A stretch of DNA of 64,000 nucleotides, from positions 18,332 to 82,331 of IMG/VR virus record IMGVR_UViG_3300027708_000034; one strand, written 5' to 3'. The DNA is from a virus (Duplodnaviria; Heunggongvirae; Uroviricota; Caudoviricetes). Each line of letters starts with the position of its first letter. The stretch's first letter is position 1. The position numbers were made by a program, and so were the translations under genes. Shown piece by piece: positions 16,694-64,000 of this stretch. The notes below the pieces were generated by a model. The model searched no databases and was not told the origin of the DNA. It worked only from the letters and a program-made list of their open reading frames with translations.

Positions 16694-16736
16694 TTTTTCT
16701 CCTTTAAATTAAGTAAGATTTTTTGGTGTTACACCG

Positions 16737-20023: not shown

Positions 20024-20446
20024 ATGTTATCTAAAATTAAGAAAGTACTTTGGTTTACAGCAGGTATGCTGTTTTTAGGCCTGGCCTATATTGGTATTAT
20101 CGTTCCTGGAATTCCTTGGTCGACACCAAGTCTTATTGCAACATACTGCTTCGCCCGTAGCAGTAAACGGTTCCACGACTACATGATGAACCATAAACTA
20201 TTTGGACCGTTCATTCGTGATTGGCAAGATGGTAGTGTATTTCCAACCAAAGGCAAATGGTTCATGTTTATCAGCATGGATTGTAGCCTTGTGATCTTTT
20301 GGTTTGCTACACAGAACTGGAAAGCTACGATGGGCATGGGCATATTCTTTGCTCTGATTATACTATGGGCAAGCCGATTGCCAGGCAGCAAAGAAGAAGC
20401 TCTACGCAGAAAAGAAGCTGGCGAAAAATTAGGCTGGTTTCGTTAA
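20024..20446 (+). CDS. DUF454/YbaN-like inner membrane protein
   Basis: GIIVPGIPWSTPSLIATYCFARSSKRFHDYMMNHKLFGPFIRDWQ parallels E. coli YbaN ([39 protein letters not shown]). Confidence 0.7.
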   Translation: MLSKIKKVLWFTAGMLFLGLAYIGIIVPGIPWSTPSLIATYCFARSSKRFHDYMMNHKLFGPFIRDWQDGSVFPTKGKWFMFISMDCSLVIFWFATQNWKATMGMGIFFALIILWASRLPGSKEEALRRKEAGEKLGWFR

Positions 20447-31481: not shown

Positions 31482-31511
31482 TCAACTCCAAAATCGCTTA
31501 GTTAAAACAAT

Positions 31512-31546
31512 ATTATACACAAAAAGAAGGGGCCTGTCAAGGCCCC
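31512..31546 (-). promoter_or_regulatory. Compact terminator-promoter module: the hairpin ggggcc-TTGACA-ggcccc terminates the SPFH gene, and its loop supplies the -35 of a TTGACA-N17-TATAAT promoter for the paralog/pilin cassette
   Basis: Minus-strand hairpin followed by TTCTTTTT. -35 in the loop (RC of 31535-31540). -10 TATAAT (RC of 31512-31517). Confidence 0.55.
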
Positions 31547-31564
31547 TGTGTTGTTTATCGACGA

Positions 31565-32422: not shown

Positions 32423-32445
32423 GATATTCCTTTGTTAAAAATTAA

Positions 32446-32479
32446 ATTATACACAAAAAGAAAGGGCCCGTCAAGGCCC
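32446..32479 (-). promoter_or_regulatory. Second compact terminator-promoter module (hairpin gggcc-TTGACG-ggccc, T-run, -10 TATAAT), near-identical in architecture to 31512-31546. Promoter for the SPFH gene.
   Basis: -35 in the loop (RC of 32469-32474), 17-nt spacer, -10 (RC of 32446-32451). Hairpin followed by TTTCTTTTT on the minus strand. Confidence 0.55.
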
Positions 32480-32574
32480 TTTGGTTGTTTTGATAATAAG
32501 GTAAGTCCTACCTCACCAAAGCCTAAGCGGCGATGGAATATAACTCGTCGTTTGCAGTTATGAAATTTGCTTGA

Positions 32575-49832: not shown

Positions 49833-50006
49833 ATGTTAAAACAACTAGCTGAATACTTCCAAAAGATGTTTCAGGATTTCAGTAAGCCACAAACTTACCA
49901 GTCAGCGTTAGAAGAATACATCGTTAGAAATGCACCGCAAGATATGTGCGATGTAGATCGCCTCACTCGTCAATTTGATATGATGCAATCACGTAGAGGA
50001 TGGTAA
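49833..50006 (+). CDS. Small protein (57 aa), not in the ORF track
   Basis: ATG preceded by the SD AGGAGAAAAT. Translates as MLKQLAEYFQKMFQDF...RRGW. Confidence 0.3.
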   Translation: MLKQLAEYFQKMFQDFSKPQTYQSALEEYIVRNAPQDMCDVDRLTRQFDMMQSRRGW

Positions 50007-50008
50007 TC

Positions 50009-50134
50009 ATGAGCATACTACAAGCCATCTATAATTTTTTAAGTGAGGTGGGTCGCGCTCGTGCTGCTTCACATCTAGCACGTCTTGGAGATCACGAAGC
50101 TGCTCGACGAGTCATGTTAATGGATTTAAAATAG
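50009..50134 (+). CDS. Small protein (41 aa), not in the ORF track
   Basis: ATG 2 nt after the previous stop. Translates as MSILQAIYNFLSEVGRARAASHLARLGDHEAARRVMLMDLK. Confidence 0.25.
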   Translation: MSILQAIYNFLSEVGRARAASHLARLGDHEAARRVMLMDLK

Positions 50135-50141
50135 CCATTAA

Positions 50142-50170
50142 GGTTGTTATATAAATAACACGACAGTATA
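50142..50170 (+). promoter_or_regulatory. Plus-strand promoter candidates upstream of the 50206 gene: TTGTTA-N17-TATAAT with an embedded TATAAATA (50149-50156)
   Basis: Hexamer spacing of 17. Exact late 8-mer inside the spacer. Confidence 0.35.
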
Positions 50171-50205
50171 ATATACTGATACACATAACACACAGGGAAA
50201 TAAAA

Positions 50206-50487
50206 ATGTTTAATAAACTATTCGCACCATATCTAACACTTGACGCACACATCGATGCGTTCCAAGAAACCAAGCGAGGCCTAACAGACAAGATCATTAC
50301 TGATCCTACGCTGAATAAGGCAGCACATGAATATATCGATGCTCAGACACAGTTCGCCAAGATGTTGTCACACAACTTCACTGACATCGCCAAGTATTCT
50401 ATGGATTCCATTGCTAACAAATGGTTTCCACAGAAAGAAGAAGTCCAGGCTAAGGCTTCTGCGAGCAAGAAGGCTCGTGCCTTTTAA
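50206..50487 (+). CDS. Hypothetical protein (93 aa)
   Basis: ORF with the SD GGGAAATAAAA. Confidence 0.45.
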   Translation: MFNKLFAPYLTLDAHIDAFQETKRGLTDKIITDPTLNKAAHEYIDAQTQFAKMLSHNFTDIAKYSMDSIANKWFPQKEEVQAKASASKKARAF

Positions 50488-50514
50488 GACATACACACAC
50501 GTAAGGAGAAAATT

Positions 50515-50787
50515 ATGTCAACAGCAACAGCAAAACTACCTGAAGTAAAATTCAACAAGAACGGTTACGAAATCCGCACAGACATTCTAGCAATGGCCAA
50601 GGACCTAGTAACACACGATTATTCCATCAAATTCCAAGGATGGGAAATGACTGCCACTCGTGATGAGAAGACTGGACAAATTATCAGCAAAATTGGTATG
50701 CCAGTGTTTCCAGGACTTGAATCAGTATTAGAAACAGCAGAAAAAATGTATAGCTTTGTTAACGCAGGCGTTGCACCTAAGAAATAA
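50515..50787 (+). CDS. Hypothetical protein (90 aa)
   Basis: ORF with the SD AAGGAGAAAATT. Followed by a terminator. Confidence 0.45.
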   Translation: MSTATAKLPEVKFNKNGYEIRTDILAMAKDLVTHDYSIKFQGWEMTATRDEKTGQIISKIGMPVFPGLESVLETAEKMYSFVNAGVAPKK

Positions 50788-50816
50788 TTATAATAAAATG
50801 TAGGACGTAGTCCAGG

Positions 50817-50850
50817 AGCCCCACCAACAACAATAGAGTGGGGCTTTTTT
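50817..50850. terminator. Bidirectional rho-independent terminator between convergent genes (8-bp stem agccccac/gtggggct with TTTTTT on the plus strand and a U-rich tract on the minus strand)
   Basis: Perfect 8-bp GC-rich stem, 13-nt loop, flanking A/T runs on both sides. Confidence 0.65.
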
Positions 50851-51019
50851 ACGACTCTGTATCTGCAGGCAAGGGAGTATTACCTTCATCAAGCCATTTT
50901 AGATATTGTTGATAATCAGTATTGTCTGGGTCGAATACAAAAGATATAGTCTTATCATCTTCAATTTTTGCTGCACCACCGACTTGTCCTGTAAATTTAC
51001 ATTTAATTAATTTATACAT
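50849..51019 (-). CDS. Small protein (56 aa, MYKLIKCKFTGQVGGAAKIEDDK...), not in the ORF track
   Basis: Continuous frame from the ATG at 51019 (adjacent to the upstream stop) to a TAA overlapping the terminator T-run. Confidence 0.3.
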   Translation of the reverse strand: MYKLIKCKFTGQVGGAAKIEDDKTISFVFDPDNTDYQQYLKWLDEGNTPLPADTES

Positions 51020-52111
51020 TTATAACTCCGATGTTAACCAAAGATATGCTGTTTGACTGTTATTTATTATTAACTCGTATGCTCTTGTTGCGGTTAAACC
51101 AGTTGCGCCACCGTAAGCAAGTAGTACACTATATGGAGTAGATGCTACATCTAGAGTTGGTGTTGAAATTGTTGGTATACTAACTCCGTCATATAATGCA
51201 AAACTACCACTAGCCGTTAATGTCGGTACTGCTCTGAAAGTCACTAATGGTTTGACTTGTGCGATACCACTGGTGGTATTACTAACAGGACCATATCCAA
51301 TACGAGTATAAGCATTACTAGCCGGATTCACTGTATCTGAACCTTTGTATACTTGACAGTATCGTTGACAGAGCTGCAATTCAGTAGTATACGGACGATA
51401 ATCGAACAGGGATGCGGTCGAACTCTTTTCCAACTGCACACCGGTGATATAGAAAGTAGCACCAGACGTACTAATCCAGTTTGTAGCACCAGTAACAGTC
51501 ATGTAATTTGCACTAGCCCATGCACCAGCAGTTCCGGTATAAGTAGAACCTATGCCAAATCCTAATCGTAAACGAACACCAATACCATTAGTTGCCCCTA
51601 TCCAAGTTCCAGATGTATCACCAGGAACTGTAACAGTTTTTTGTTCCCATGTATTTGCTAAAGAAATTGTATAACTAAATGGGTATGAACGATTTTGTGC
51701 AGAATTTACTAATGCACCGCCATAGGTTCCTATAATGCTAGACCGACACCAAAATGATAAAGTTACCGTTGCTGCGTTTGCTGTTCCCCATCCGCAATCA
51801 GCAAAGTTAAAACCTTCAATTTTTTGACCAAGAAAATAATAATCACCTGCTGCCACTGTAGTTGCCGCACTTGATGTTAAAAGAAGCGAATTGTTGAAAC
51901 CAGTAGGTGCAGTTGTACTTTGTTGTGCAGTTAGTTTACTACTTACTGAAGGTGCAAATTGCCATCTATCAGTCGTATATTCTTCAGCAGTTGTAATCGT
52001 AAGACTTACCCCACTATTGCGCTGGTCAATCACCATCCCCCCATTGAAGATACGGTTCTTAAAGGACACCGAATCAGCATTGAATGAGGATAAATCACTG
52101 GCTTTTGACAT
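51020..52111 (-). CDS. Virion structural protein, fiber-like (363 aa)
   Basis: Ser/Thr/Gly/Ala-rich beta-rich composition. Sits in the structural gene block. Confidence 0.5.
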   Translation of the reverse strand: MSKASDLSSFNADSVSFKNRIFNGGMVIDQRNSGVSLTITTAEEYTTDRWQFAPSVSSKLTAQQSTTAPTGFNNSLLLTSSAATTVAAGDYYFLGQKIEGFNFADCGWGTANAATVTLSFWCRSSIIGTYGGALVNSAQNRSYPFSYTISLANTWEQKTVTVPGDTSGTWIGATNGIGVRLRLGFGIGSTYTGTAGAWASANYMTVTGATNWISTSGATFYITGVQLEKSSTASLFDYRPYTTELQLCQRYCQVYKGSDTVNPASNAYTRIGYGPVSNTTSGIAQVKPLVTFRAVPTLTASGSFALYDGVSIPTISTPTLDVASTPYSVLLAYGGATGLTATRAYELIINNSQTAYLWLTSEL

Positions 52112-52128
52112 ATGTACTTCCCGTTAAA

Positions 52129-55100
52129 TTATGCTTGAGCTTCGCCCCAACGCAGCACCAAGTTGGCATTAACCGCACTACCCTGTGTAACGTACACGTT
52201 GATCATCAACACGTCCGGACCGTTGGGATATGCACCCCTGCCGCCGATTGGTGTGTTGGTCAATTCTTTCAATGGTGTTAAATCTAATCCGTCTTTTGAT
52301 GATGGACTTGATATGAATGAGAAAATCTGTTCCCCAGGATTTGCATACTGATTTCTACCAAAGTTGAAATTACCATTAGCTACAGAGATCAACGGCTGAC
52401 TTACTGTGATGGTGCTAGCACCGATGCTAGTGACCACCGTACCGCCCTGTAAAAAGTTACCGTTATATACCGCATCACCGATGGCCACGCTGGCAGTGCT
52501 GGCCACACCTACTACAGACTGATTAGGAAATCCGCCAGTGGCACTCAATGTACCGGTGCTGACATTGTCAAATGTGATGGAATTACCCGAGGCCACCTGA
52601 CTGAAACTAGGTTGTCCGCTACTGGTCAAGTTAGTCCAGGTAATGTTGTTGGTGTTTGATGGATAGTTGCTGGGATTCAAGATACCCTCGATGATCAAGG
52701 CCTGACCCGCAGCACTAGTGCCGGCTGTAATTTCAATACCCTGTAGCAGCAGTTGAGCGCGATTGATTAATTCCCTAACTCCTAGATCGCCTGTGATAGC
52801 ATTACTAACGCTAGGTGACAATCGAATGGCAAATGCAGTGGTCTTTCTAATCTGGGCTGCAATATTGGTAGCAGCATAGTTAAAGATGTATCCTCGATCA
52901 TTGTCAAATCCACCATCAGTTAGGAATGCACTTCCCCAATGACTGATCACTGGACTTGCTGTCTGACCGACTACAATAACACCGGTTCCAGATGTATGCG
53001 CAAATGCGCCGCTGCCACTGAATGTTCTATTCTGTCCAGCTACCCATTGGGTGAAACTTGATCCCCTAGCACCCAATGTCAATTGATTAGTAGCAGTGGT
53101 TTTGGCAGTGTAAGGAATGATTTCATTATCGATCATGATCGTGCCGGAATTGGCAAAATATGTGACGTCAGTCAAGGTCATAACTGTGCCTGCACTTGAA
53201 ATATCAGTGGCCAAGGCTGACCTAGCGCCCTCATTGGTAACTTCGTATCTGACCGGCATGTTACCTGTGCGCATATACGCTTCATTATTGACGTTGGAGT
53301 TTTTGATCCTATGCATGGTTAGATAATTTCCATCAGGGCCCCTCAACATATAATCGATAAATCCTGCACCATACCAAGTCCATTGCAATCCGATCATTTG
53401 CATTTTATTAGGTATTAAATTATATCCGCTGGGATTGAACACGCTGTTGGTTCCATCACATCTATCATTATTCCATTGACTTTGCGGGATGATGATATCA
53501 CGAGTTTTTACTGCCTTGACTCCGGTGGAAGCAATCACACCTCGATAGTCTGGAGTTATGGTAATACTGGTCTGGCTATTTACTGCGCTGACCACATGGG
53601 TCATACCCCTGATCACTATCCTATCCCCGGCAATTAGCTGGTCGCGGAATCTAGTATTTGTGCCAGTGATTAAATTAGAATCCGGAATCACTGAAATTGT
53701 TCCAGCAAGTTGCAAGGTACTGGTCCTGAGACCCAAAGCCATGACCTGGCCGTCGTATTGGATAAACATACCGTTTTGTTCATCAAATGTGCCAGCTCTT
53801 ACTGTGGATCCGCTCCAAGTTACTAGCGAAACTAAACAAGGAGTATCCAATATTGCCGTTGTGGTGTCTAAAGTATTGGTTGCGAAAAATAAGAAAGTTC
53901 TCTCGTCAACGATACCGGCCACAGTATAGGTACCGTTATATCCACCACTAGTCACACCGGATATCTGTATCACTGCACTAACCTGCAGGCCGTGATCCAC
54001 ATCATCTACTACCACAGTCACAGTGGAGCCTATAGTGGTGCCCGATGCAGTTAAACTTCTTATGTCATAATTGGGGGCAAACAATCCGCCGGTATTGTAA
54101 TTGATGGCCTTACCACTTTGATAACGTATGTATTTTTTACTCATACGCACGGATTGAGCACCGTGTTGTGGGCCGCCGTTGCCTAGAGACACACCACCGT
54201 CATATGGTCTATGAACATAAAAACTATCTGACCTTACATATATGGTACCCGTCACAGTGCCAGTGATCGACCCAACACTTCTAGCCATGTAGACCAAAGA
54301 GGTTCCAGTGGTCACTGTGGATATATAGAATGGGCCTTGACACAGATTGTTATTGTTGCTGCCGTTGTCACTGCCGATGGCAACATATATACTATTTCCC
54401 GGAACTAGTCCGTGATTGGCGGCGAAACTTACAGTAACGGTGCCAGTGGTGCTGGCACCACTTCCAATCACTGTAAATGTTGGAGTTCCTATAGAAGCGC
54501 CGGTGTAAAAACCACCTTTCCTGATCTGTGTGTAGGTGCTGCTGATAGTTTCACCTATGGCAGATCCCACACGGGCCTTGGCATAATAGTTAAAAATATT
54601 AGTTCCAGTGACAGCATTTATCACGAAGGATCCCTCTGCGCGGGCATAACCAGATGCCGAAGACAGCAATGCCTTCACAGTGATGGGAGTACTGGTACTT
54701 AAATTATGCGGAGAAGAACATGTCACAGTGATGAGGCTTTCAGCATCAACAGATCCGCCGTTGGAATAATCTGTAGTTATCGAACTGATATTACTCAAAT
54801 CAGTGCCGGGGATTTCATATATGCCCGGATATCCTCGAACCATGCTGAGAGTCTGCCATTTGGTTGGTTGCAGTCCGTATTCAAAGTCAGCGTCCAACAT
54901 GCTTTGCGGTGCAGCCATACGTGTACGTTCAAAAGCATCAGTGCCCAGAGACCAGGGACGAGTGACAATTTCATTTCGTTCTACGAATATCTGTAGGGAA
55001 TCAGTGGAACTCATGGCACTGGTATCGTAGCCTAATCTAAAAGTAGTCACACCATCAGTATTTTGTAGAGCTTGGGGAAAACTGGCAGTATTGGCCCTGC

Positions 55101-55278
55101 TAAAAGTCACTGTTGTGTTATTATAGGCGATATCTGCAAAATTATAGATTATGATATTTTTTGTGATATTGGTAACAATCAGCAATTGGTTAAGATCCCA
55201 TTTGCCGGGTACACTTATAGTCCCGTTGGTGGCTGTTCCGGGTGCGAACACATAAGTTCTTAATAGTTGCTTAGCCAT
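52129..55278 (-). CDS. Large virion structural protein (1049 aa; baseplate/fiber-associated)
   Basis: Very long T/S/G/N-rich ORF with beta-rich repeats, located between fiber genes. Confidence 0.55.
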   Translation of the reverse strand: MAKQLLRTYVFAPGTATNGTISVPGKWDLNQLLIVTNITKNIIIYNFADIAYNNTTVTFSRANTASFPQALQNTDGVTTFRLGYDTSAMSSTDSLQIFVERNEIVTRPWSLGTDAFERTRMAAPQSMLDADFEYGLQPTKWQTLSMVRGYPGIYEIPGTDLSNISSITTDYSNGGSVDAESLITVTCSSPHNLSTSTPITVKALLSSASGYARAEGSFVINAVTGTNIFNYYAKARVGSAIGETISSTYTQIRKGGFYTGASIGTPTFTVIGSGASTTGTVTVSFAANHGLVPGNSIYVAIGSDNGSNNNNLCQGPFYISTVTTGTSLVYMARSVGSITGTVTGTIYVRSDSFYVHRPYDGGVSLGNGGPQHGAQSVRMSKKYIRYQSGKAINYNTGGLFAPNYDIRSLTASGTTIGSTVTVVVDDVDHGLQVSAVIQISGVTSGGYNGTYTVAGIVDERTFLFFATNTLDTTTAILDTPCLVSLVTWSGSTVRAGTFDEQNGMFIQYDGQVMALGLRTSTLQLAGTISVIPDSNLITGTNTRFRDQLIAGDRIVIRGMTHVVSAVNSQTSITITPDYRGVIASTGVKAVKTRDIIIPQSQWNNDRCDGTNSVFNPSGYNLIPNKMQMIGLQWTWYGAGFIDYMLRGPDGNYLTMHRIKNSNVNNEAYMRTGNMPVRYEVTNEGARSALATDISSAGTVMTLTDVTYFANSGTIMIDNEIIPYTAKTTATNQLTLGARGSSFTQWVAGQNRTFSGSGAFAHTSGTGVIVVGQTASPVISHWGSAFLTDGGFDNDRGYIFNYAATNIAAQIRKTTAFAIRLSPSVSNAITGDLGVRELINRAQLLLQGIEITAGTSAAGQALIIEGILNPSNYPSNTNNITWTNLTSSGQPSFSQVASGNSITFDNVSTGTLSATGGFPNQSVVGVASTASVAIGDAVYNGNFLQGGTVVTSIGASTITVSQPLISVANGNFNFGRNQYANPGEQIFSFISSPSSKDGLDLTPLKELTNTPIGGRGAYPNGPDVLMINVYVTQGSAVNANLVLRWGEAQA

Positions 55279-55302
55279 TTGTTAAAATCCTTTTAATCTT
55301 CA

Positions 55303-57258
55303 TTACATTCCCAGTACTATGGACATTGCCACACTAAAACTTTTTAGACTGTTTACACTACTTATCGGTGTAGTACTGGTCTGGCCAGAAATCACTTTCA
55401 CAACATCTCCAGCTGATCTAGCCACAGTCAGTGTTATAGTAGTACCATTCAATGCTGTAAAATCTCCTGATCCAAACAGTATGCCATTTACATAAACTTG
55501 TGCAGTACCCGGAGTATATCCACTGGGAATAGTGAATACTGTTTGACCGGCAGTGGCTATTAGTTCTTGTATATTTAATGGTATGATCTGCTGTCCGTTG
55601 GTAAAGACGTTGCCGGCATACATGCTGCCGCCAATGCCAACCCCACCTGTTACGGTCAACGCACCAGTTAGTGTAGAACTAGCAGCGGTCAATCCAGATA
55701 TAGACATCCTAGACACACCACTGATAGTTCCACCAGCAACACCAGTAGTGGCAAAACTTGACGCATAAACAGTGCCGCCAAAGCCCGCTCCGCCAGCAAC
55801 GATCAACGCGCCGGTCTGTGTAGAAGTAGCCGATGTGGCATTGGTAACAGTAAATGCAGAGGTTACATTGCCAGTGACAGTCAAATTAGTGGCAGTTATG
55901 TTTACTGCTTGGAAACTGGTCACTCCGGTGATCGAACCGCCGGTGCCAGTTGTGGTATATGAGGTGGCTGTAACAACCGTGGCTACTATATTTGTGGCAC
56001 TGACATTTGTAGCATATAGATAAGAAACACATCTAATGACGCCAAGTCCAGAGCCTCCAACGAATCCCTGAGCATAGACAGTTCCACCAACACCCAAGCC
56101 GCCTGCTACCACTAGAGCGCCGGTCTGTGTAGAAGTGGCCGATGTGGCATTAGTAAGAGTGAATGCCGAAGTTACATTACCAGTGATGCTCAAATTAGTA
56201 GCAGTCACGGTACCAGTGACGTTGATGTTTAAACCAGAATATTGATTTACTCCGGTGATCACTCCAAGTCCACCCGATCCATAAAATGCAGCGGCGTAAA
56301 TATCACCGCCGATACCCACACCACCACGTACCTGCAGAGCACCTGTAGTGGTACTGGTACTCGAAGTGGTGTTCAATATTACGAATGTAGCTGTCGTACC
56401 AGTACTGGATGAGGAGGATGCCGCGGCATACAATCCAATAGTAGCAGTGGTGATGATCTGAGCGCCGGCAATGAATGAAGAAGTGCCGATATAAACAGCG
56501 CCACCGATGCCAACTCCGCCTGTTACTATCAATGCGCCAGTCGTAGTTGATGTTGATGTAGCAGTACTGGTTATTGTGGCCGTAGATGCTGACAAAAATC
56601 CAACACCGGTAATAAATCCACTGCCAGCTACACCGGCAGTTACGATACTGGTGGCGGTTATTACTCCACCAACAAATAATCCGCCGCCAACACCAACTCC
56701 GCCTACTACCTGTAGAGCACCTGAATTGGTACTGGTTGTGCTGGCAGTGCTGGAGATAACGAATGTGCCAGTAGTACCGGTACTGGCGGTGCCTGCCGCA
56801 GCATAAAGACCAATAGTGGCAGTGGTGATGATCTGTGCACCAGCGATGAATGACGCAGTTCCTATATAAACAGCACCACTGATACCAACGCCGCCAGTTA
56901 CCTGTAAAGCGCCAGTTGTAGTCGATGTAGATGCAACATTGCCAATTATTGTGGCAGTGGATGCTGATATGAAAGCAGCACCAGTGATAGATCCAGCTCC
57001 AACACCACCTGTTACAATACTAGTAGCAGTTATCACACCGCCAACATATAAGTTACCGCCAATACCCGCCCCGCCCCTCACTTGCAGAGCACCTGTAGTG
57101 GTACTAGTAGACGATGCCGTGCTAGAAACTACTAATGTAGTGGTAGCGGTTACTGCTCCAGCAACTCTAGTCCAAGAGTTGGTGGCTGAACTATAGGTAT
57201 AGGTAATACCGTTTAGTGAGGCAGTTTGTCCATTAGTGGGTGATAAGGGGAATGACAC
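55303..57258 (-). CDS. Fiber protein with about six tandem repeats of roughly 50 aa (TSTTTGALQVxGGVGIGGxVYxG...ATSIVTGGVG)
   Basis: Internal periodicity visible in the translation. Thr/Gly/Ala/Val-rich beta-solenoid-like repeats. Confidence 0.6.
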   Translation of the reverse strand: MSFPLSPTNGQTASLNGITYTYSSATNSWTRVAGAVTATTTLVVSSTASSTSTTTGALQVRGGAGIGGNLYVGGVITATSIVTGGVGAGSITGAAFISASTATIIGNVASTSTTTGALQVTGGVGISGAVYIGTASFIAGAQIITTATIGLYAAAGTASTGTTGTFVISSTASTTSTNSGALQVVGGVGVGGGLFVGGVITATSIVTAGVAGSGFITGVGFLSASTATITSTATSTSTTTGALIVTGGVGIGGAVYIGTSSFIAGAQIITTATIGLYAAASSSSSTGTTATFVILNTTSSTSTTTGALQVRGGVGIGGDIYAAAFYGSGGLGVITGVNQYSGLNINVTGTVTATNLSITGNVTSAFTLTNATSATSTQTGALVVAGGLGVGGTVYAQGFVGGSGLGVIRCVSYLYATNVSATNIVATVVTATSYTTTGTGGSITGVTSFQAVNITATNLTVTGNVTSAFTVTNATSATSTQTGALIVAGGAGFGGTVYASSFATTGVAGGTISGVSRMSISGLTAASSTLTGALTVTGGVGIGGSMYAGNVFTNGQQIIPLNIQELIATAGQTVFTIPSGYTPGTAQVYVNGILFGSGDFTALNGTTITLTVARSAGDVVKVISGQTSTTPISSVNSLKSFSVAMSIVLGM

Positions 57259-57271
57259 CAGTAGTTCCTAT

Positions 57272-57637
57272 TTAGAGAGGCATCCAGTCAGTAGCTGCTT
57301 CGTCCCATTGATACATTTTGCCATCAGTAGGATACGGTGTCGGTGCTTCCCAAAGCCAATTAGTAGCTTCGCTGATAGTCCATGAATTGAAGGGCCTCGG
57401 CGGGTAAAAAACATCGTGTTTCGAATCGTAGATATAGCCAATACCTGCATAATTTCCCCGTAACGCAACACCGCCATCCGGTTCACCGTTGGCATTATAA
57501 TGCACATTCCCTCGGGTATTATAGCTGGTCTGTATCCATACTCCCGGCGTATCGTCTACATAACTGTCGATAAATTCTTGTTCTGCTACGATAACTCTCT
57601 GTACTTTACCGTATGCAACTTTTGCGAAATGACTCAT
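57272..57637 (-). CDS. Hypothetical protein (121 aa)
   Basis: ORF. Preceded by the conserved 24-nt BglII-palindrome element. Confidence 0.45.
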   Translation of the reverse strand: MSHFAKVAYGKVQRVIVAEQEFIDSYVDDTPGVWIQTSYNTRGNVHYNANGEPDGGVALRGNYAGIGYIYDSKHDVFYPPRPFNSWTISEATNWLWEAPTPYPTDGKMYQWDEAATDWMPL

Positions 57638-57661
57638 TTTACTATTCCTTTTTACTATTTA

Positions 57662-57686
57662 ACTCAGATGCAGATCTGTTAGAAAG
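57662..57686 (-). repeat. Conserved upstream element ACTCA(G/C)ATGCAGATCTGTTAGAA (second copy at 62672-62697), containing the palindrome CAGATCTG
   Basis: A 24-nt match with one mismatch between the two loci. In both it sits 25-50 nt upstream (minus strand) of a gene start and is followed by TAAATAGTA...AAAGGA. Confidence 0.5.
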
Positions 57687-57700
57687 ATATATTTCCTATA

Positions 57701-58627
57701 TTAGTAGTTTTTCTTAATGACAAATCTACCGCCGCTGCCACTTCCGGAACTGGTTCCTCCAGTTCCTGCTGTACCTCTATCAGCATCGGCATTATTACCC
57801 GCAACACTGCCGCTACCGGCAGTGGTGGTGCCACTGGTAATGCCCGCGCCGCCGATGTAACCAGATCCACCTCCGGCACCCGCCCCTGCGGTGTCACCGC
57901 CACCTCCACCACCGCCAAAATATCCGCCACCTCCACCACCGCCGCCTGCGTCGCCGGAACAAAGGATACCGCCGCCGCCATTACCAAATCCCAATCCGCC
58001 GGCGGCCGAAACCCCGCCACCACCTGATCCATTACCTCCATTACGACCGCTTCCAGCAACTCCTGTTCTTCTAGATCCAACCCCGCCGGCACCCGCTGCA
58101 GATTGTGTTCCGCCATAACCTCCGATGCTGCCACTACAGGTACCGTTAACACCTGTGGCACCACCACCGGCACCACCGCCGCGTGTGCCGCTGCTGTCGC
58201 CAGATCCTCCACCACCACCGGCTACAATAATTGCTGTTGATCCAACAGCGGTCTGCATGCCTGTACCAGCGCCACCGCCTGATCCAACACGGCTTGCGGC
58301 GGTTCCAGTACCGCCGCCACCTACTATAATCTGATAATTGGTTCCAGCACTAAATGTAAAGTTACCGGTTGAATTTCCACCACCACCGCCGGCGGCACCG
58401 CTGGCTGATCCACCGCCGCCGCCCCATAGCTTGAGTGTCGTAGGAACACTATTACCGGTGGCACTTATAGTATAGGTCGTATTGGCAGTGGTTATTACTA
58501 GATCGCCATCTCCTGCCAAATCCCAAGTTGTTTTCCCAGAAACTGCTGGAGAAATCGTGAGTGTAAGAGGAAATGCTCCCATGGTTAAGGTTCCTCCTAT
58601 TCTAACGCCGCTGCCGCCGATGATCAT
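57701..58627 (-). CDS. Glycine-rich protein, MIIGG family member (308 aa)
   Basis: N-terminus MIIGGSGVRIGG. More than 45% Gly with GGGGG runs. Confidence 0.55.
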   Translation of the reverse strand: MIIGGSGVRIGGTLTMGAFPLTLTISPAVSGKTTWDLAGDGDLVITTANTTYTISATGNSVPTTLKLWGGGGGSASGAAGGGGGNSTGNFTFSAGTNYQIIVGGGGTGTAASRVGSGGGAGTGMQTAVGSTAIIVAGGGGGSGDSSGTRGGGAGGGATGVNGTCSGSIGGYGGTQSAAGAGGVGSRRTGVAGSGRNGGNGSGGGGVSAAGGLGFGNGGGGILCSGDAGGGGGGGGYFGGGGGGGDTAGAGAGGGSGYIGGAGITSGTTTAGSGSVAGNNADADRGTAGTGGTSSGSGSGGRFVIKKNY

Positions 58628-58641
58628 AATATATATATTTC

Positions 58642-59547
58642 CTAGAATATTATAGAACCTGATGCAGTGAATATGTAAAATATGGTACTGCTTGTGACAT
58701 ATTGATTGGCATTTGTAGATATTGCTGCTGCGTATGTTATTGGATAACGCACTATAACCACACCACTACCGCCAGTGGCTCCAAGATTGCCGCCACCTGC
58801 TCCACCACCGGTATATGGTTGACCGTTGCCGCCTGCTAAACTCGTACCAGATCCGCCGGATGACACACCATTTCCTCCACCACCCAAAGCACCAGTTCCG
58901 CCAGTGCCGTTGGCCATGCCACCGCCACCACCTGCAAAGTAAACTTGGCCACCACTAATTTCCCCAACACCTGCTGCTGTTGCGGTTGGTACACAAATAA
59001 ATGTAGTGGCCACGCCAGCACCGCCAGCACCGCCAGTATTTGCTCCACTAGAGCCAGCGATACCAATTCCACCCACTCCTCCTGCTCCACCACCGCCACC
59101 GCCTGCACTATTGGCAGTGATACAGCTAGTCCTAGCTCGACCACCTGCAAATCCTTGTCCCGCGATACCAGCACCGCCCGCAGTACTGCTACGGCCGCCG
59201 CCCCCGCCACCAGAGCCGCCTGCAAGCCCTGCAGTATTGAACACGCCTCCACGTCCACCGCCAGTGGCTGTTACTGCATCGATAGAAGATGCGCCGCCGC
59301 AGGTCTTTACACCGCCTGGTCCAACAACAATGCTGATTGGCGTGCCTTGGACTACTGCTAAAGTTCCAGTCAATACTCCGCCAGCGCCACCAGCTGCAAT
59401 ACCTGCATTTCCATCACCGGATTGGGGTGACCCACCGCCGCCTGCCACCAAAAAATACTGGATCGAAGGCGGTGGATTTCGTATGATAAAATCTGATATG
59501 CTAAAAGGGCCACCCCCTATTGTAACGCCGCCACCGCCGATGATCAT
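58642..59547 (-). CDS. Glycine-rich protein, MIIGG family member (301 aa)
   Basis: N-terminus MIIGGGGVTIGG. C-terminus FYIFTASGSIIF shared with paralogs. Confidence 0.55.
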   Translation of the reverse strand: MIIGGGGVTIGGGPFSISDFIIRNPPPSIQYFLVAGGGGSPQSGDGNAGIAAGGAGGVLTGTLAVVQGTPISIVVGPGGVKTCGGASSIDAVTATGGGRGGVFNTAGLAGGSGGGGGGRSSTAGGAGIAGQGFAGGRARTSCITANSAGGGGGGAGGVGGIGIAGSSGANTGGAGGAGVATTFICVPTATAAGVGEISGGQVYFAGGGGGMANGTGGTGALGGGGNGVSSGGSGTSLAGGNGQPYTGGGAGGGNLGATGGSGVVIVRYPITYAAAISTNANQYVTSSTIFYIFTASGSIIF

Positions 59548-59575
59548 AATGTATATTTCCTATATTAATAATTTT

Positions 59576-61729
59576 CTAACCACCGATTAGTTGTGCTGTC
59601 GGTGGTGTGAATGCGGCTGTATATCTAGCATAGCCTTTGGTTACTCGGTAGTCATCCATATATCCATTAAAGAAAAAGGTACCGCTTAGGTATGCTACTC
59701 TACCAATGTTATAGGGAATAGTTGCATCAGTGTATATAGCACTCGATGATGTAAAAGTCCTATCCACCACACCATTTACAAAACTTCTGAATGTGCTGCC
59801 ACTGCGGGTAACAGCAATATGATACCAAGTATTTGCGGACAATAGTATGTTGCCCCTATTGCCGACAGTGTCGCATTCCAAAATGTCCCAGCTGGTGCCG
59901 TTGCTACTAGCCCACATACATACTTGCTGTCCCCATATTTCCAATCCAAATCCCTTATAGTGTGAGGCAGTGTCAGTTCCTGGGCCTGATACGTATTTTC
60001 TAGCACTAGTATCTCCAATGTATACCCATGTTTCTATTGTAAAGTCAGCTTTTGAGAAAAGGAATGAGTGTGTGTTTGGTAAAAAACAATAATCAGTTGA
60101 TCCATTGAACTTCAAGGATGCTGTACCGTATTTGACCTGGGTAGTACTGGCCTGAGCAGAACCCACAGTGATCACATCGTTCATGGCTGCTGAATCATAG
60201 ATGCCAGCGTTGGCAAAATTGAGTAACAATTGAGTATTAGTCACTGTTGTTAGTGGAGTAGTCGGAGGGGTAAAGTTACTGGTATAGACTGCCGTGCCTT
60301 TGACGATGCGAAGATCGCTAAGGTATCCATTGTATTGAAAATTGACTGTACCTACATCGTCGTACCCAATTCTCAGAGTCTGCGCAGCCGAACTAGGAAG
60401 TGTTATGGTAGTTGGGCCCGCTACTGAAACTCCGTTGACATATATCCTTGCGCTGCCGGCATTACACACCACTGCTATATGATACCAATTGTTCAATGCT
60501 ATAGTACCGGATGGAGCTCCAATGAGGGTTCCGGGGCTACCATATGGTCTATACCATCCAAAACTTCCGTTGTTGTCGTACCCTATATCCCAGCCAGCAG
60601 CATCACCGTTGGCGCCTGCCATTAGTAATCGGCATTGATTTCCCGATGTAGGAGTAGCCATAGAGTACATCCACCATTCTATGGTCCATGTACTGCTAGA
60701 TAAGTCAAACACACTAGATGACGGAAGTGTTAATTTATCTCCACTGCCATTGAAGTACGCACTAGTACCAATTGTGCCGGCAGTATATTCAGTTTGGCCA
60801 TTTCCAAAAGGACCAAAACGTTGGATACTTGGATTGCTAACTGTGGTTACAGCAAAGGCATTGCTACTTCTATCGATGATTCTATTATCTTGGAACAACA
60901 ATAACTGTACACCCGAGGCTCCTTGACTAGTTGTTGTTACGGCAGCAGTTGGTGGTGTGAATATGGTAGTTCCAGCAGTGGTACTGGTAGTAGAGTACGA
61001 GGTAGGTACAGCGCCGATACACATCCTGAAATTGCTTATATACATTTCAGTTAAATCTCCGCCCAGTTGTGAGTTGGTTCCAAAGCTGGTATTTGAAGTT
61101 CCGTTAATGTTGGTTGAGTTTGCAGTGGCTTCGCGCAGTATTCCATTTACAAATAATCTAAGATATCCGTTTTGTCTAGATGACACTACATGTATCCATT
61201 GTCGAACATGCCCTGAACCGTTGGTGCCAGTGGTATCGTATGTTGCACTATTATATGTTTGACTATTGCCGTCGACTAGTGTTTGTATCAAGGTATCAAC
61301 AGTACCAAATGCCAATTCAACACCTATGCTGCCTGCTAGACCGTAGTTACTCTGATGACTCCAGACTCGGGTATAATTCGCCGGCTGTTTTGCTATGTAT
61401 AACCAGCACTCGATTGAAAAATCTCCAGTACCAATTGCTCTGGTAGCGCTGTATGGCAAATAAGCATAGCTGCTGGTACCGTTGGTATACAAACTCCAAT
61501 TATTACCATACGGGCTAAATGAACCCTGTGTTGTTGTACCAGTACGAGTGATAGAGAAATTGTTAGAGGAAGAATCTAAGAAAGTATTATTCTGTGCAGC
61601 GTTGGCACCATCTCCATAAAATAGTGCAGTTACATAATTGAATTGAGCGTCAGTTGGCGTTGGTACAACAGCAGGTCCTAATATTTGTACCCTACCTTGT
61701 ATTACAATTCCACTACCGGTGATAATCAT
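59576..61729 (-). CDS. Structural protein (717 aa) sharing the MIITGSGI N-terminus of the Gly-rich family but with a large non-Gly-rich beta-rich body
   Basis: N-terminus MIITGSGIVIQG. T/S/N/G-rich lectin/fiber-like body. Confidence 0.55.
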   Translation of the reverse strand: MIITGSGIVIQGRVQILGPAVVPTPTDAQFNYVTALFYGDGANAAQNNTFLDSSSNNFSITRTGTTTQGSFSPYGNNWSLYTNGTSSYAYLPYSATRAIGTGDFSIECWLYIAKQPANYTRVWSHQSNYGLAGSIGVELAFGTVDTLIQTLVDGNSQTYNSATYDTTGTNGSGHVRQWIHVVSSRQNGYLRLFVNGILREATANSTNINGTSNTSFGTNSQLGGDLTEMYISNFRMCIGAVPTSYSTTSTTAGTTIFTPPTAAVTTTSQGASGVQLLLFQDNRIIDRSSNAFAVTTVSNPSIQRFGPFGNGQTEYTAGTIGTSAYFNGSGDKLTLPSSSVFDLSSSTWTIEWWMYSMATPTSGNQCRLLMAGANGDAAGWDIGYDNNGSFGWYRPYGSPGTLIGAPSGTIALNNWYHIAVVCNAGSARIYVNGVSVAGPTTITLPSSAAQTLRIGYDDVGTVNFQYNGYLSDLRIVKGTAVYTSNFTPPTTPLTTVTNTQLLLNFANAGIYDSAAMNDVITVGSAQASTTQVKYGTASLKFNGSTDYCFLPNTHSFLFSKADFTIETWVYIGDTSARKYVSGPGTDTASHYKGFGLEIWGQQVCMWASSNGTSWDILECDTVGNRGNILLSANTWYHIAVTRSGSTFRSFVNGVVDRTFTSSSAIYTDATIPYNIGRVAYLSGTFFFNGYMDDYRVTKGYARYTAAFTPPTAQLIGG

Positions 61730-61746
61730 TTGTATTTCCCTTATTT

Positions 61747-62649
61747 TTAGAAACTTATATATCCCGATGCAGTGAATATATAAATTCTATTATTGCCCGA
61801 CAACACTGGCGTTATAGTCGTGCCCGTAATTGTCGCACTGGTATAAGAAGATGGGTAACGGATGATAACGATCCCAGAGCCGCCTGCGCCGCCAGTGTTG
61901 TTAAACTCAGAGCCAGCACCGCCACCTCCACCACTATTGGCAGTTGCGTTTGATCCGCTGAGGTTAGTATTGGCACCTGCGCCGCCGCCGCCACAGCCGC
62001 CAGTTCCAGGTCTCGATCCGTTGTGCGTAGCGCCTCCACCACCACCTGCGTAGTAGGTTGCTGTGCCAGAAATAGAAGACAAAATTCCAATACCACCATT
62101 ACCTCTTATCGCAGTGTTTGCGTCGTTATATGAAACACCTGCCCCGCCTGCGCCGCCGCCGCCGCCACCCACGTCTAGATTGTTATTACTATCTGATCCG
62201 CCAGTGCCACCAGCAAATCCTTGGCCACAGGTTCCGCCGCCACCCGCAGCTCCAGCACTGGCGCCAACACCGCCGCCGCCACCAGACCCCCCAGCAACAC
62301 CAGCTAGTCCAACACTCGACCTATAAGAGCCGCCGCCGCCGCCACCTGCTGAAGTGATTGTAGAAAAAGCTGAAGGATTGCCACTAGATCCAGCAGGTCT
62401 ACAACCGTTGCCGCCTGAAGCAGTCCCTGGCCCACCAGGACCAATAGTCACTGTGTAACTGATACCTGCTGATACAGCAAAACCAACGGCAGTTCTAGCA
62501 CCACCAGCGCCGCCGCCGCCACCTGACTGCGTACCGCCGCCGCCGCCTCCGGCAACTACTAGATATTCTACCGTAGGTGGGGCAGTTGGAGCAGATGTAT
62601 CTCCTATTTGAATAAACCCACCCATCGTAATTCCAGCACCGATAATCAT
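61747..62649 (-). CDS. Glycine-rich protein, MIIGG family member (300 aa)
   Basis: N-terminus MIIGAGITMGG. C-terminus RIYIFTASGYISF. Confidence 0.55.
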   Translation of the reverse strand: MIIGAGITMGGFIQIGDTSAPTAPPTVEYLVVAGGGGGGTQSGGGGGAGGARTAVGFAVSAGISYTVTIGPGGPGTASGGNGCRPAGSSGNPSAFSTITSAGGGGGGSYRSSVGLAGVAGGSGGGGGVGASAGAAGGGGTCGQGFAGGTGGSDSNNNLDVGGGGGGAGGAGVSYNDANTAIRGNGGIGILSSISGTATYYAGGGGGATHNGSRPGTGGCGGGGAGANTNLSGSNATANSGGGGGAGSEFNNTGGAGGSGIVIIRYPSSYTSATITGTTITPVLSGNNRIYIFTASGYISF

Positions 62650-62692
62650 TGTGTCAACTGTCCTTTGTACTATTTACTCACATGCAGATCTG

Positions 62693-64000
62693 TTAGAATT
62701 TAATAGTTCCTGATGAAGTGGTCCACGAGTATGTTCTATAACCGCCAGCAACAGTGACAGTTGCAAAAGTAGACGATGTTGCCTCGGCATATACATCGGA
62801 ATAGCGAATGACCACTATACCACTGCCGCCGTCGCGCACACTGCTTCCACCATTGCCGGTATTTGCTGAGCCAGATACCAGCTGTGCGCCTCGTCCACCA
62901 GCACTAAATGTAGCATTACCAATTGAACTAAACAAGCCTGCCCCCGGAGTAAAGGAAACTGCGGCTCCGCCAGCGCCACCACCGCCGCCACTATCCCAGC
63001 CACCATTTGAGTTTATTGCTGGTGCCGTGCCACCAGCAAATCCTTGTCCAGTTGTACCGGCGCCGCCAACATTACTGCCGCCGTTGATATCGCCACCGCC
63101 ACCACCTGATCCACCCGCGCCGCCACTATTATTTCGTGTCCCGCCATAGCCGCCGCCTATAGCAGTCAAGCCAAATGCACTGGAATTTACACCTTGGGTT
63201 CCATTGCTGCCTCCGCCGGTTCCTGTATTATCTGGACCAGTACCTCGAGGTCCGCCAGCACCAACCGTGATCGTATACGTTGTTCCAGCAGATATCGCAA
63301 GGCTACTGGAAGTTAAGAATCCGCCGCCACCGCCGCCACCACCTACATCAACGTCAGATCCACCACCACCTCCGCCTGCAACTATCAAGTATTCAATTGT
63401 AGGCGTAGGTATTGGAACTGGTGCAACTGACAGTGTTCCTGATGCAGTAAACACATGAGCAACGTAAGAAGTTCCACAAACAGTATATGAGTAAACAGAT
63501 CCGCCAGTCGCTCGCTGGATTAAGGATTGGTATCTAACGATGACAACTCCACTGCCGCCATTACCACCGCCGTGTGTAGTATCTCCACCAGCACCACCAC
63601 CTCCACCGCCAGTGAATGCTGTAGCCGCCGTTCCATTGGCATTGACTCCCCCAGCACCGCCGCCGCCCAGTCCTCCCGAACCTGCTGGACGACCTGCATT
63701 GACGGTATTGATTCCACCACCTCCGCCACCTGCAAAATATAAACTGGTGCTAGTGGTCTGTCCTATGCCTGCAGATACTGCTGTACTGGTGGAAATTATC
63801 GTAGTCAATGTACCGATACCACCGTTACCGCCTACTAGAGTGGTACCAGCAGCGCCAACTCCACCCGCGCCACCACCACCTCCGCCTGCGTAGTTTTGTC
63901 CAGTAGTTTCTCCATTGCCGCCCGCAAATCCCTGTCCAGCTACGCCAGCGGCACCCGTTTGTCCAGTACCGCCACCTCCCCCGCCACCACCGCCACCGCT
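62693..64000 (-). CDS. Glycine-rich protein, family member, 5'-truncated by the window edge (the frame stays open to position 64000; the track's TTG start at 63808 is an edge artifact)
   Basis: The minus-strand frame continues without a stop through 63809-64000, encoding further GGGGGG-rich sequence. C-terminus TSSGTIKF. Confidence 0.5.
   Translation of the reverse strand, partial: SGGGGGGGGGGTGQTGAAGVAGQGFAGGNGETTGQNYAGGGGGGAGGVGAAGTTLVGGNGGIGTLTTIISTSTAVSAGIGQTTSTSLYFAGGGGGGINTVNAGRPAGSGGLGGGGAGGVNANGTAATAFTGGGGGGAGGDTTHGGGNGGSGVVIVRYQSLIQRATGGSVYSYTVCGTSYVAHVFTASGTLSVAPVPIPTPTIEYLIVAGGGGGGSDVDVGGGGGGGGFLTSSSLAISAGTTYTITVGAGGPRGTGPDNTGTGGGSNGTQGVNSSAFGLTAIGGGYGGTRNNSGGAGGSGGGGGDINGGSNVGGAGTTGQGFAGGTAPAINSNGGWDSGGGGGAGGAAVSFTPGAGLFSSIGNATFSAGGRGAQLVSGSANTGNGGSSVRDGGSGIVVIRYSDVYAEATSSTFATVTVAGGYRTYSWTTSSGTIKF

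Follow-up and report, generated by a model that had tools for sequence, protein, structure and literature searches.

What do the glycine-rich genes at the end of a phage sequence encode, and why do they stand in a row behind one common start? This question is raised by a stretch of 64,000 nucleotides (nt) from a tailed virus of the Caudoviricetes (IMG/VR virus record IMGVR_UViG_3300027708_000034, positions 18,332 to 82,331), which is referred to below as the window. At its end, five consecutive minus-strand genes encode proteins of 557, 300, 717, 301 and 308 amino acids (aa), and they are followed by a gene for a 121-aa protein. The five array proteins have different heads and a common N-terminus of 12-16 residues, M-I-I-(G/T)-G-x-G-(I/V)-x-(I/M/F)-x-G. 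We consider that the locus is probably an adhesin cassette composed of modular tail-tip proteins, a shared adaptor and a downstream chaperone. In the proposed arrangement, the five late genes would give small modular tail-tip proteins that dock at one virion site through the common peptide. Four of them would contain one or two TNF-like beta-sandwiches, whose long glycine-rich strands pack into a polyglycine-II 'brush' (Pfam family PF21722), and the fifth, the 717-aa protein, would carry three LamG lectin-like domains in place of the brush. The 121-aa gene closing the array would encode a folding or assembly chaperone, the counterpart of gp25 of phage Pam3, with one chaperone serving five glycine-rich domains.

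The extent of the array was determined from the window and from contig L002, which is 100% identical to the window and reaches 8.6 kb past its end. An initial annotation, made from the sequence alone, had described five consecutive genes with an MII start; four of these starts lie in the window, and the fifth (MIITGGISFNG), belonging to an open reading frame (ORF) that is open at the window edge, was found on L002, 366 nt outside the window. The array thus runs off the window as described, but no further copies follow. On L002, other genes lie upstream of the 557-aa gene: a 133-aa gene, then fibres of 955 aa and 598 aa (the latter a LamG fibre), a 134-aa gene and a fibre of 1642 aa. Exactly five members thus make up the array, and the extension recommended earlier places its end at the 557-aa gene. 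In the 72.6 kb of the window plus contig extension, the motif MII(G/T)G.G is confined to these five ORFs. In 5' to 3' order on the minus strand, the edge-open ORF (stop at 62693) is followed by the 300-, 717-, 301-, 308- and 121-aa genes, a 651-aa fibre-like gene and a 1049-aa gene. The coordinates of the array genes and of the elements discussed below are given in Table 1.

Table 1. Position of the array genes, the downstream 121-aa gene and the repeated or remnant elements, numbered in the window unless a contig is named.
Feature	Position	Strand	Description
557-aa gene (3' 1308 nt in window)	62693..64000	-	L002:8284-9957; starts MIITGGISFNG; two tandem PF21722 domains
300-aa gene	61747..62649	-	MIIGAG...YIFTASGYISF; strongest family member
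717-aa gene	59576..61729	-	starts MIITGSG, N-terminal peptide MIITGSGIVIQG; three LamG/concanavalin-like domains, no glycine-rich domain
301-aa gene	58642..59547	-	MIIGGGG...YIFTASGSIIF; PF21722
308-aa gene	57701..58627	-	MIIGGSG...GGRFVIKKNY, then stop; 37% Gly; divergent glycine-rich protein
121-aa gene	57272..57637	-	phrog_7759, no Pfam family; candidate assembly chaperone of glycine-rich domains
Junction copy 1 (51 nt)	62661..62711	-	last five codons and stop of the 557-aa gene, spacer, TAAATAG, AAAGGA
Junction copy 2 (52 nt)	57646..57697	-	remnant codons GGA AAT ATA TCT TTC TAA, spacer CAGATCTGCATCTGAG, TTAAATAG, AAAGGA
A5 run and out-of-frame remnant	57679..57712 (A5 = 57708-57712)	-	+1 frame; includes the 'orphan RBS' (ribosome-binding site)

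The composition and lengths of the glycine-rich proteins differ in part from the earlier description. The glycine content of the array proteins of this type is 33.0-37.0% rather than above 45%, and only three of them (300, 301 and 308 aa) rather than four are close to 300 aa long, the fourth having 557 aa and two tandem domains. The closing hydrophobic strand YIFTASGxIxF is present in the 300- and 301-aa proteins as proposed, but not in frame in the 308-aa protein; in the 557-aa protein, each domain ends in a ...T(A/S)SGT(L/I)x(V/F) strand. The paralogues align at 36-41% identity and conserve the non-glycine landmarks EYLVVAGGGGGG, GQGFAGG, YFAGGGGG, GGSGIVIIRY and FTASGxIxF. Because these features are conserved, the likeness among the paralogues is more than compositional. 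At the nucleotide level, the matches between paralogues are short (17-49 nt). The informative matches of greatest length join the 301- and 308-aa genes over their first 32 nt (90.6% identity) and the 300- and 301-aa genes over 37 nt at their 3' ends. Since there is almost no nucleotide similarity and no long near-identical repeat, the array paralogues are old duplicates and not the result of a recent expansion or an assembly artefact. An artefact is also unlikely because the same proteins recur on independent contigs: the exact 300-aa protein is found on four further contigs, each 100% identical to the window, and the 308-aa protein is unchanged on five contigs from four samples.

Membership in PF21722 (Gly_rich_2) was defined as a whole-protein hidden Markov model (HMM) score at or above the gathering cut-off of 24.3 bits. 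The 300-aa protein (79.9 bits, E = 3.6e-22), the window part of the 557-aa protein (65.8 bits, E = 7.3e-18, in two stretches) and the 301-aa protein (29.4 bits, E = 1e-6) all exceed this value. An independent family HMM, which was made from database homologues alone with the window sequences excluded, detects the same three proteins with E-values of 8e-76 (300 aa), 4e-67 (557 aa) and 1.5e-34 (301 aa). The 308-aa protein has no Pfam match at E <= 0.01 and is not significant in hmmsearch with the family HMM; in hhalign against the family profile, its residues 67-111 align with a probability of 87% and E = 3.8e-6, the score being 49 compared with at most 28 in 20 shuffles. The search of IMG/VR confirmed no relatives of the 308-aa gene. 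In the phage collection, tblastn with the 300-aa protein gave no match, probably because of the low-complexity filter, and megablast with window positions 50000-64000 gave none. The PF21722-type family comprises more than 3,200 homologues at E <= 1e-5, which are nearly all unnamed, and many of which are fused to TIG, He_PIG, Ig-like, fn3 or LamG domains. Its N-termini are highly variable, and its C-terminus, TGSPTIT..GGYRIY.FTSSGSITF, is strongly conserved.

The AlphaFold2 model of the glycine-rich protein has a predicted local distance difference test score of 90.6, and the fold predicted for the 300-aa protein is a TNF-like beta-sandwich with strands that run on into the polyglycine-II brush, a lattice of extended glycine-rich strands. 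Its structural matches are the Bxb1 'tail wing brush' gp33 (9d93_Qa, score 13.9, 32% over 167), the Pam3 tail fibre gp24 (7ypx_A, score 12.8, 30% over 172), the Bxb1 tail spike gp29 (9d93_Pa, score 7.4, 22% over 144) and, in several entries, the glycine-rich domain of ALK (score about 5, 18-20% over 103-112). Foldseek returns the identical set of structural relatives, and the sequence profile finds Pam3 gp24 among the PDB sequences with E = 1.3e-4. In an alignment of 38 sequences, 13 conserved blocks contain 66 of the 99 glycines of the 300-aa protein, and variable stretches of 5-20 residues lie between them, which is the pattern of motifs and hypervariable segments known from the Pam3 gp24 and S16 gp38 adhesins (PMC9608196). 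As judged from these models, the glycine-rich ORFs, which resemble low-complexity noise, are predicted to be well-folded members of the brush adhesin class.

The known members of this class suggest how such a protein may work. In the pair gp24/gp25 of Pam3 (PDB 7YPX/7YFW; PMC9608196, PMC9942802), gp24's TNF-like domain has strands that extend into a four-layer lattice of glycine-rich motifs; the protein resembles S16 gp38 and ALK, and its less conserved distal tip is proposed to bind the host (PMC9608196). Like gp24, the array proteins have beta-sandwich strands that continue as a glycine-rich lattice, and they share with it the strand ...G(I/V)(I/V)I(V/I)(Q/R)Y, in which gp24 ends. They differ in that gp24 docks on the baseplate by a long N-terminal alpha-helical bundle instead of a 12-16-residue peptide, is the sole fibre of its phage, whereas five paralogues are encoded here, and lacks the conserved C-terminal strand module of about 35 residues that the array proteins add. 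In the S16/T2-type gp38 (PDB 6F45), a small adhesin that caps the fibre by its N-terminal part, conserved glycine-rich motifs are likewise arranged as a polyglycine-II sandwich, and the tip that binds the receptor is made of hypervariable segments (PMC9608196; PMC13243192). The same domain class has been named 'polyglycine-rich' or 'brush' in siphovirus hubs (PMC13243795) and has been described as a polyproline-II-helical bundle (PMC13243192). If the array proteins work like Pam3 gp24 and Salmonella phage S16 gp38, their conserved glycine motifs would form a rigid scaffold, contact with the host envelope would be made by a distal surface built from the variable segments in between, and five different heads on one adaptor would provide several binding specificities.

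The other relatives are more distant in context. Bxb1 is a siphovirus of a host with mycolic acids, and its gp33 is mounted on the wing protein gp30 via gp31 (PDB 9D93; PMC12646305). The likeness to the TNF-like plus glycine-rich (TG) supradomain of ALK/LTK (PDB 7LRZ, 7NX1, 7LIR) is at the level of the fold only, these being cytokine-binding receptor tyrosine kinases of animals. We take the glycine-rich domain of ALK/LTK to be a different Pfam family, PF12810. The mycobacterial PE_PGRS proteins, with which the genes had initially been compared, have a high content of glycine in GGxGG-type repeats, and both groups are thought to form polyglycine-II bundles (PMC13243192), so that the comparison holds for the secondary-structure type. 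It does not extend to demonstrated homology: the likeness concerns composition and secondary-structure type only, no similarity is found at the Pfam or profile level, and the Pfam scan finds no PE domain in any array protein, the N-terminus of which is the 12-16-residue peptide. The PE_PGRS are, moreover, bacterial surface proteins rather than virion proteins. The PE_PGRS reading and a reading as RTX-type beta-rolls were dropped, as neither had a Pfam signal.

In the 717-aa protein, the common peptide stands before another type of head. As had been noticed, this protein keeps only the N-terminus of the array, and the remainder consists of three Laminin_G_3 domains (E = 7.2e-48, three stretches); its matches in the PHROG database are LamG families of baseplate-wedge and virion-structural proteins. 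The N-terminal motif is rare in the glycine-rich family as a whole (2-3 of 120 homologues), and the peptide is disordered in the monomer model. A second five-gene array with starts of the same type, MILNTGMVLTGG, MNFSGVTISGAY, MEYSGITLTPGF, MNISGVNFTGGF and MLITSGVTIESG, was found on an unrelated contig, L007, where the proteins have 291, 311, 963, 1205 and 520 aa and each bears LamG and/or Gly_rich_2 domains. The 717-aa protein is homologous in its LamG region to the two long proteins of L007, which end in a Gly_rich_2 domain, and perfect TATAAATA boxes stand directly before two genes of that array. From these sequences, the N-terminal peptide may be a lineage-specific docking strand, and the array would then offer alternative heads for one virion site.

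The 121-aa gene downstream of the array belongs to phrog_7759, which is annotated as 'unknown function'. At least 7,966 database clusters at 90% identity match it at E <= 1e-5, which makes this a large family, and its members accompany glycine-rich genes. Among 44 IMG/VR loci with a 121-aa homologue, 35 have a glycine-rich ORF upstream on the same strand (family HMM, E <= 1e-3), and the gap is at most 15 nt in 26 of these 35 pairs. The nine unpaired loci comprise eight with less than 1.1 kb of upstream sequence and one with a 35%-Gly ORF below HMM detection. De-replication at 90% identity leaves 22 testable lineages. Of these, 21 are paired, and in 16 the gap does not exceed 40 nt. In the nearest relatives, whose 121-aa proteins are 88-94% identical to that of the window, the upstream gene is a different one and encodes a giant LamG protein.

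The pairing is also found in cultured phages of OM43, Roseobacter and Pontimonas. Methylophilales phage Melnitz (L059, MZ577097.1) has two consecutive pairs of a glycine-rich gene and a 121-aa-family gene (5605-6987/7001-7372 and 8406-9620/9631-10014), and Roseobacter phage CRP-143 (L060, OR420748.1) has one 121-aa-family gene among three glycine-rich genes; all of these genes are annotated as 'hypothetical protein'. In Pontimonas phage phiPsal1, an unannotated glycine-rich ORF of 298 aa with a TTG start and the end GGSGIVIVRYAV lies directly upstream of the 121-aa-family gene (L061:4105-5001; MG835450.1 about 15857-16753). The GenBank record lists two ORFs with 'no BlastP matches' (022 and 023) in another frame there, which look like spurious mis-annotations arising from GGN-rich sequence.

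When the structure of the 121-aa protein was modelled from aligned database homologues, the best PDB match of the model was the fibre chaperone gp25 of Pam3. The gene order is identical in Pam3, where the small gp25 gene follows the glycine-rich fibre gene gp24 after a gap of 12 nt. Both the 121-aa family and gp25 have an N-terminal H(F/Y)A(K/R)V..G.V motif at a matching position, but the hhalign alignment covers 16 N-terminal residues only (E = 0.012), and there is no significant sequence similarity between them. The 121-aa profile gave no relevant match at E <= 10 among the PDB sequences and the protein has no Pfam family, homology to a characterised chaperone thus not being detected in these searches. 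The C-terminal half of the model is made up of short, Trp- and Pro-rich strands and loops, with helices only at residues 20-25 and in two short turns, and gp25's alpha-helical C-terminal trimerisation domain is absent from it. Because the synteny and order match, the similarity to gp25 is limited and the helical domain is lacking, the protein is regarded as chaperone-like rather than as a gp25/Tfa member; it is likely that it works like a fibre chaperone for glycine-rich domains. We know of no tandem paralogue array or partner of the 121-aa type in Bxb1.

Whether the array is actively diversifying, as was initially suggested in the form of a diversity-generating locus, can be judged from its variation. 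Under this alternative, the array would be a target of a diversity-generating retroelement or would undergo frequent gene conversion or copy-number change, and tandem paralogues of a host-interaction domain are what it would lead one to expect. The 64-kb window has no template/variable repeat pair and no long near-identical repeats; the repeats present are collagen-like, fibre-internal or short GGN runs. The matches among the paralogues do not exceed the lengths given above, all contigs recovered for the phage are 100% identical to the window across four samples, and no reverse transcriptase was found among the ORFs examined, a scan that did not cover every ORF. Another point that fits the alternative is a discontinuity in the 717-aa gene, where contigs of three independent assemblies of the Joint Genome Institute break at the same place (end 59858, start 59863), which could be population heterogeneity. 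No repeated 17-mer explaining this break occurs in the 72.6 kb available, and it might reflect strain-level alternative sequences. Active diversification is thus extremely improbable, and the array is better regarded as a set of old duplicates.

The initial annotation had also described a conserved 24-nt element, followed by AAAGGA, before the 121-aa gene and the paralogue at 61747, and had read it as a regulatory BglII palindrome. Two exact copies do exist: an element of 23 nt occurs exactly twice on the minus strand, at 57662-57684 and 62676-62698, where no occurrence is expected by chance. However, it is part of a longer unit, since local alignment extends it to a 52-nt repeat that begins five codons within the coding end of a paralogue (SGTIKF and stop in copy 1, GNISF and stop in copy 2). 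Copy 1 reads A GGA ACT ATT AAA TTC TAA CAGATCTGCATGTGAG-TAAATAGTACAAAGGA, with CAGATCTGCATGTGAG as its unique spacer, and its Shine-Dalgarno sequence AAAGGA precedes the ATG of the 300-aa gene by 11 nt. In copy 2, which lies ahead of the 121-aa gene, the sequence is A GGA AAT ATA TCT TTC TAA CAGATCTGCATCTGAGTTAAATAGTAAAAAGGA, and AAAGGA precedes the ATG by 8 nt. The repeat would thus be a duplicated junction between the end of a glycine-rich gene and the next gene, the upstream half being debris of coding sequence plus a spacer, and the downstream half, TAAATAG plus AAAGGA, being a late-promoter-like box with an RBS.

The alternative is that the CAGATCTG palindrome is an operator, at which a dimeric regulator co-controls the 300- and 121-aa genes. 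It is in keeping with the occurrence of exactly two copies, each just upstream of a gene start, and with the similarity of the junction copies (about 88%), which is far above that of the flanking coding DNA. The palindrome has merely 8 bp, though, and the relatives with 88-94% identical 121-aa proteins keep TTAAATAGTAAAAAGGAA in the leader of this gene and lack the CAGATCTG spacer. Because it is TTAAATAGTAAAAAGGAA that is kept, the TAAATAG box and the AAAGGA RBS are the conserved and probably functional part. The extension of the repeat into coding sequence is also what a duplication junction would produce. The element was not found after glycine-rich genes in the metagenome or viral collections: an exact search for the spacer TAACAGATCTGCATSTGAG returned nothing from viral contigs and two unrelated chance matches from metagenome contigs. 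Shuffled sequences fold at least as well as the junction RNA does, no terminator or sigma-70 signal at the junction is above chance, and BglII sites (AGATCT) are not enriched in number (17 against about 16 expected). An operator is therefore very improbable on these grounds, and we read the element, from its sequence, as a duplicated gene junction with a late-promoter-like box.

The box itself recurs in the phage. TAAATA is found within 60 nt upstream of 13 of 66 genes, compared with about 1.8% expected, and a perfect T4-type TATAAATA precedes several other genes in the window. The junction boxes GTAAATAG and TTAAATAG contain only the TAAATA core of this T4-type late promoter; their TAAATAG sequences stand at about 62668-62675 in copy 1 and 57653-57660 in copy 2. 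An unrelated gene at 20024-20446 on the plus strand has a leader, GTTAAATAGTCAAAAGGGA, which is almost identical to that of the 121-aa gene, GTTAAATAGTAAAAAGGAA, and this pair of leaders supports a recurring promoter-plus-RBS box.

The second short element, an 'orphan RBS' behind the 308-aa gene, had been taken for the scar of a deleted copy. Three-frame translation and alignment of the 3' ends show that, in the +1 frame after this gene, ACT ACT AAT ATA GGA AAT ATA TCT TTC TAA encodes TTNIGNISF and a stop, a C-terminus of the family type that is comparable to TASGYISF of the 300-aa gene and matches the 557-aa gene's 3' end in a codon-by-codon alignment. The zero-frame stop of the 308-aa gene lies two codons past the A5 run, and deletion of one A from this run gives ...GGRFVIKKTTNIGNISF and the stop. 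Between the IVIIRY strand and the final strand, the 308-aa protein is also about 25 residues shorter than the other paralogues. The reading that we favour, with somewhat better than even confidence, is that the 308-aa gene has lost most of its C-terminal strand module by an out-of-frame deletion or an indel, and that its last nine codons remain as debris in the +1 frame.

Two other explanations were considered for the same bases. In the first, which keeps the idea of a scar, a sixth paralogue was deleted, and its leader TAATATAGGAAATATA was joined by microhomology-mediated deletion to the last codons of a paralogue (..TCT TTC TAA). Its basis is that the 'orphan RBS' stretch matches the leader of the 301-aa gene exactly over these 16 nt, that the leader GGAAATATA has a GGA(A/T)ATATA microhomology with the 3' ends of the paralogues (GGATATATA), through which the deletion could have taken place, and that some family members naturally end after the GSGIVIIRY strand, as does the 308-aa protein. 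The scar is thus possible, but the gene's own C-terminus explains the stretch equally well or better: the bases read TTNIGNISF directly behind ...GGRFVIKK, become a normal family C-terminus with one A less, and align by codons with the 557-aa gene; a relative with an intact sixth copy was not found. We regard the deleted sixth copy as the less likely origin, though one to be taken seriously. In the second explanation, a programmed +1 ribosomal frameshift on AAA-AAC would give a short isoform ending in ...VIKKNY and a long one ending in ...VIKKTTNIGNISF. The A5 run two codons before the stop, the +1 frame that gives exactly the family C-terminus and then a stop, and the identical arrangement in five contigs from four samples would fit this mechanism. 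On the other hand, there is no known stimulatory element, the next zero-frame codon at the slip site is neither a stop nor rare, five A's are too few for efficient transcriptional slippage, a decayed end explains the roughly 25 missing residues more simply, and the frame-repaired protein scores no better against the family HMM. A frameshift is highly improbable for these reasons. The search for relatives deciding between the readings of this gene end found none, and the loss of the C-terminal module is retained below.

The genes around the array place it in a tail-fibre module of a large freshwater myovirus that is distantly related to the T4-like cyanophages (Kyanoviridae). The 1049-aa neighbour has 52% identity with a protein that is named 'virion structural protein' in Synechococcus phages S-CAM1 and S-CAM3 and is encoded there beside tail-fibre and neck genes, and the 363-, 598- and 651-aa neighbours match tail-fibre or structural PHROGs. 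Three fibres, of 651 aa (55303-57258, minus strand), 598 aa (L002:3193-4989) and 955 aa (L002:4993-7860), have a second N-terminal adaptor, M.(F/L)P.SP.NGQT..LNGITY.Y, which is distinct from the MIIGG peptide, and the 955- and 1642-aa fibres are each followed by a 133/134-aa protein of phrog_20196, which is probably their own chaperone. The phage thus appears to carry two families of interchangeable tail appendages. In S-CAM1, three tandem Cys/Gly-rich paralogues of about 300 aa (L001:1762-4562, SXBG_00224-00226; ..ELWGGGGSGG.., ending in ..I(K/R)I(T/S)Y..) are located near the homologue of the 1049-aa gene. By eye they look like the 308-aa gene, but a relation is detected by neither HMM, and they were not accepted as the same family. 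On the plus strand at 57679-63893, long Pro/Ala/Val-rich ORFs (e.g., 59006-59590 and 63540-63893) overlap the glycine-rich genes; these are mirror artefacts of GGN codon runs and not genes.

Other observations concern the remainder of the window, which also encodes a ribonucleotide reductase. The opposite strand encodes, with raised G+C, a collagen-triple-helix protein of 1226 aa, which ends in an intramolecular chaperone domain of the Peptidase_S74 type (3011-6691, plus strand). A full-length Hsp70 (DnaK-like, E = 1.6e-256; 14792-16693, minus strand) and a ClpX-like ATPase (21785-23020, minus strand) form an unusual chaperone and protease complement for a phage. A 53-nt direct repeat (31504-31556 and 32438-32490, 85% identical) with a GGGGCC...GGCCCC hairpin flanks the gene at 31565-32422, and it looks like paired terminators or the boundary of a small mobile cassette.

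The PF21722 membership, the predicted fold and the tail-fibre gene context together support the initial view that the array encodes receptor-binding or decoration proteins of the virion. Between these two roles, it is possible that the glycine-rich proteins are dispensable accessory decorations of the tail, like the Bxb1 'wing brush', which adhere weakly and non-specifically to envelopes or particles and do not act as host-range adhesins. In Bxb1, gp33 touches the wing protein gp30 only, homologues of gp30, gp31 and gp33 are missing in the related phage Hami1, and a gp30 deletion mutant, which is probably unable to mount gp33, still forms plaques (PMC12646305). Moreover, the phage studied here is already equipped with several long fibres, which have an adaptor and chaperones of their own. 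The variable segments between the glycine blocks and the maintenance of five diverged heads suggest instead a selection for distinct specificities, and a purely decorative role is considered unlikely.

Several points weigh against the adhesin cassette itself. The incorporation of the proteins into the virion and their binding to a receptor are deduced from the genomic context among fibre and virion-structural genes, and receptor binding would not be guaranteed by the fold, because Pam3 gp24 is a sole tail fibre but Bxb1 gp33 is a peripheral appendage. Pam3 gp24 docks by its long helical bundle and forms trimers, whereas the array proteins have only a short peptide. The 308-aa protein should be treated as a divergent relative, its alignment with the PF21722 family being confined to 45 residues. 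The TAAATAG box differs from the canonical T4 late promoter, and its promoter function is presumed. Finally, PF21722 genes without a neighbour of the 121-aa type exist, for example on L006; therefore, the converse rule, that a PF21722 gene predicts a 121-aa neighbour, fails. The analysis itself establishes how the genes and the repeat are built, to which family the proteins belong, what their predicted folds match and how the genes are ordered; location in the virion, receptor binding, docking by the N-terminal peptide, chaperone activity and promoter function are deduced from this. With these points taken into account, the adhesin cassette is the explanation that we prefer.

The locus adds no new mechanism, as phage brush-domain adhesins with a downstream chaperone are known from Pam3. 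What is worth recording is the common N-terminal adaptor on five heads and the near-universal pairing of phrog_7759 with upstream glycine-rich adhesin genes. An old duplication junction and the decayed end of a gene account for the palindrome, the 'orphan RBS' and the diversity-generating idea. As a rule for annotation, an adhesin and its probable chaperone would be marked by a PF21722 gene with a phrog_7759 gene behind it, and the pair of glycine-rich and 121-aa proteins is a concrete co-expression pair for structural or host-range work. In a broader and more tentative reading, to which we give somewhat less than an even chance, the 121-aa family would be the dedicated chaperone of polyglycine brush adhesins in aquatic phages (those of SAR11, OM43, Roseobacter, Synechococcus and the actinobacterium Pontimonas), and, together with the shared docking peptide, it would make the array a plug-in set of five interchangeable heads, four brush and one lectin, on one tail site. 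In the genomes of uncultured phages, no part is harder to predict than host recognition; if this broader reading is true, the brush-plus-chaperone pair would be among the dominant host-recognition modules of aquatic phages, and it would be predictable from sequence.

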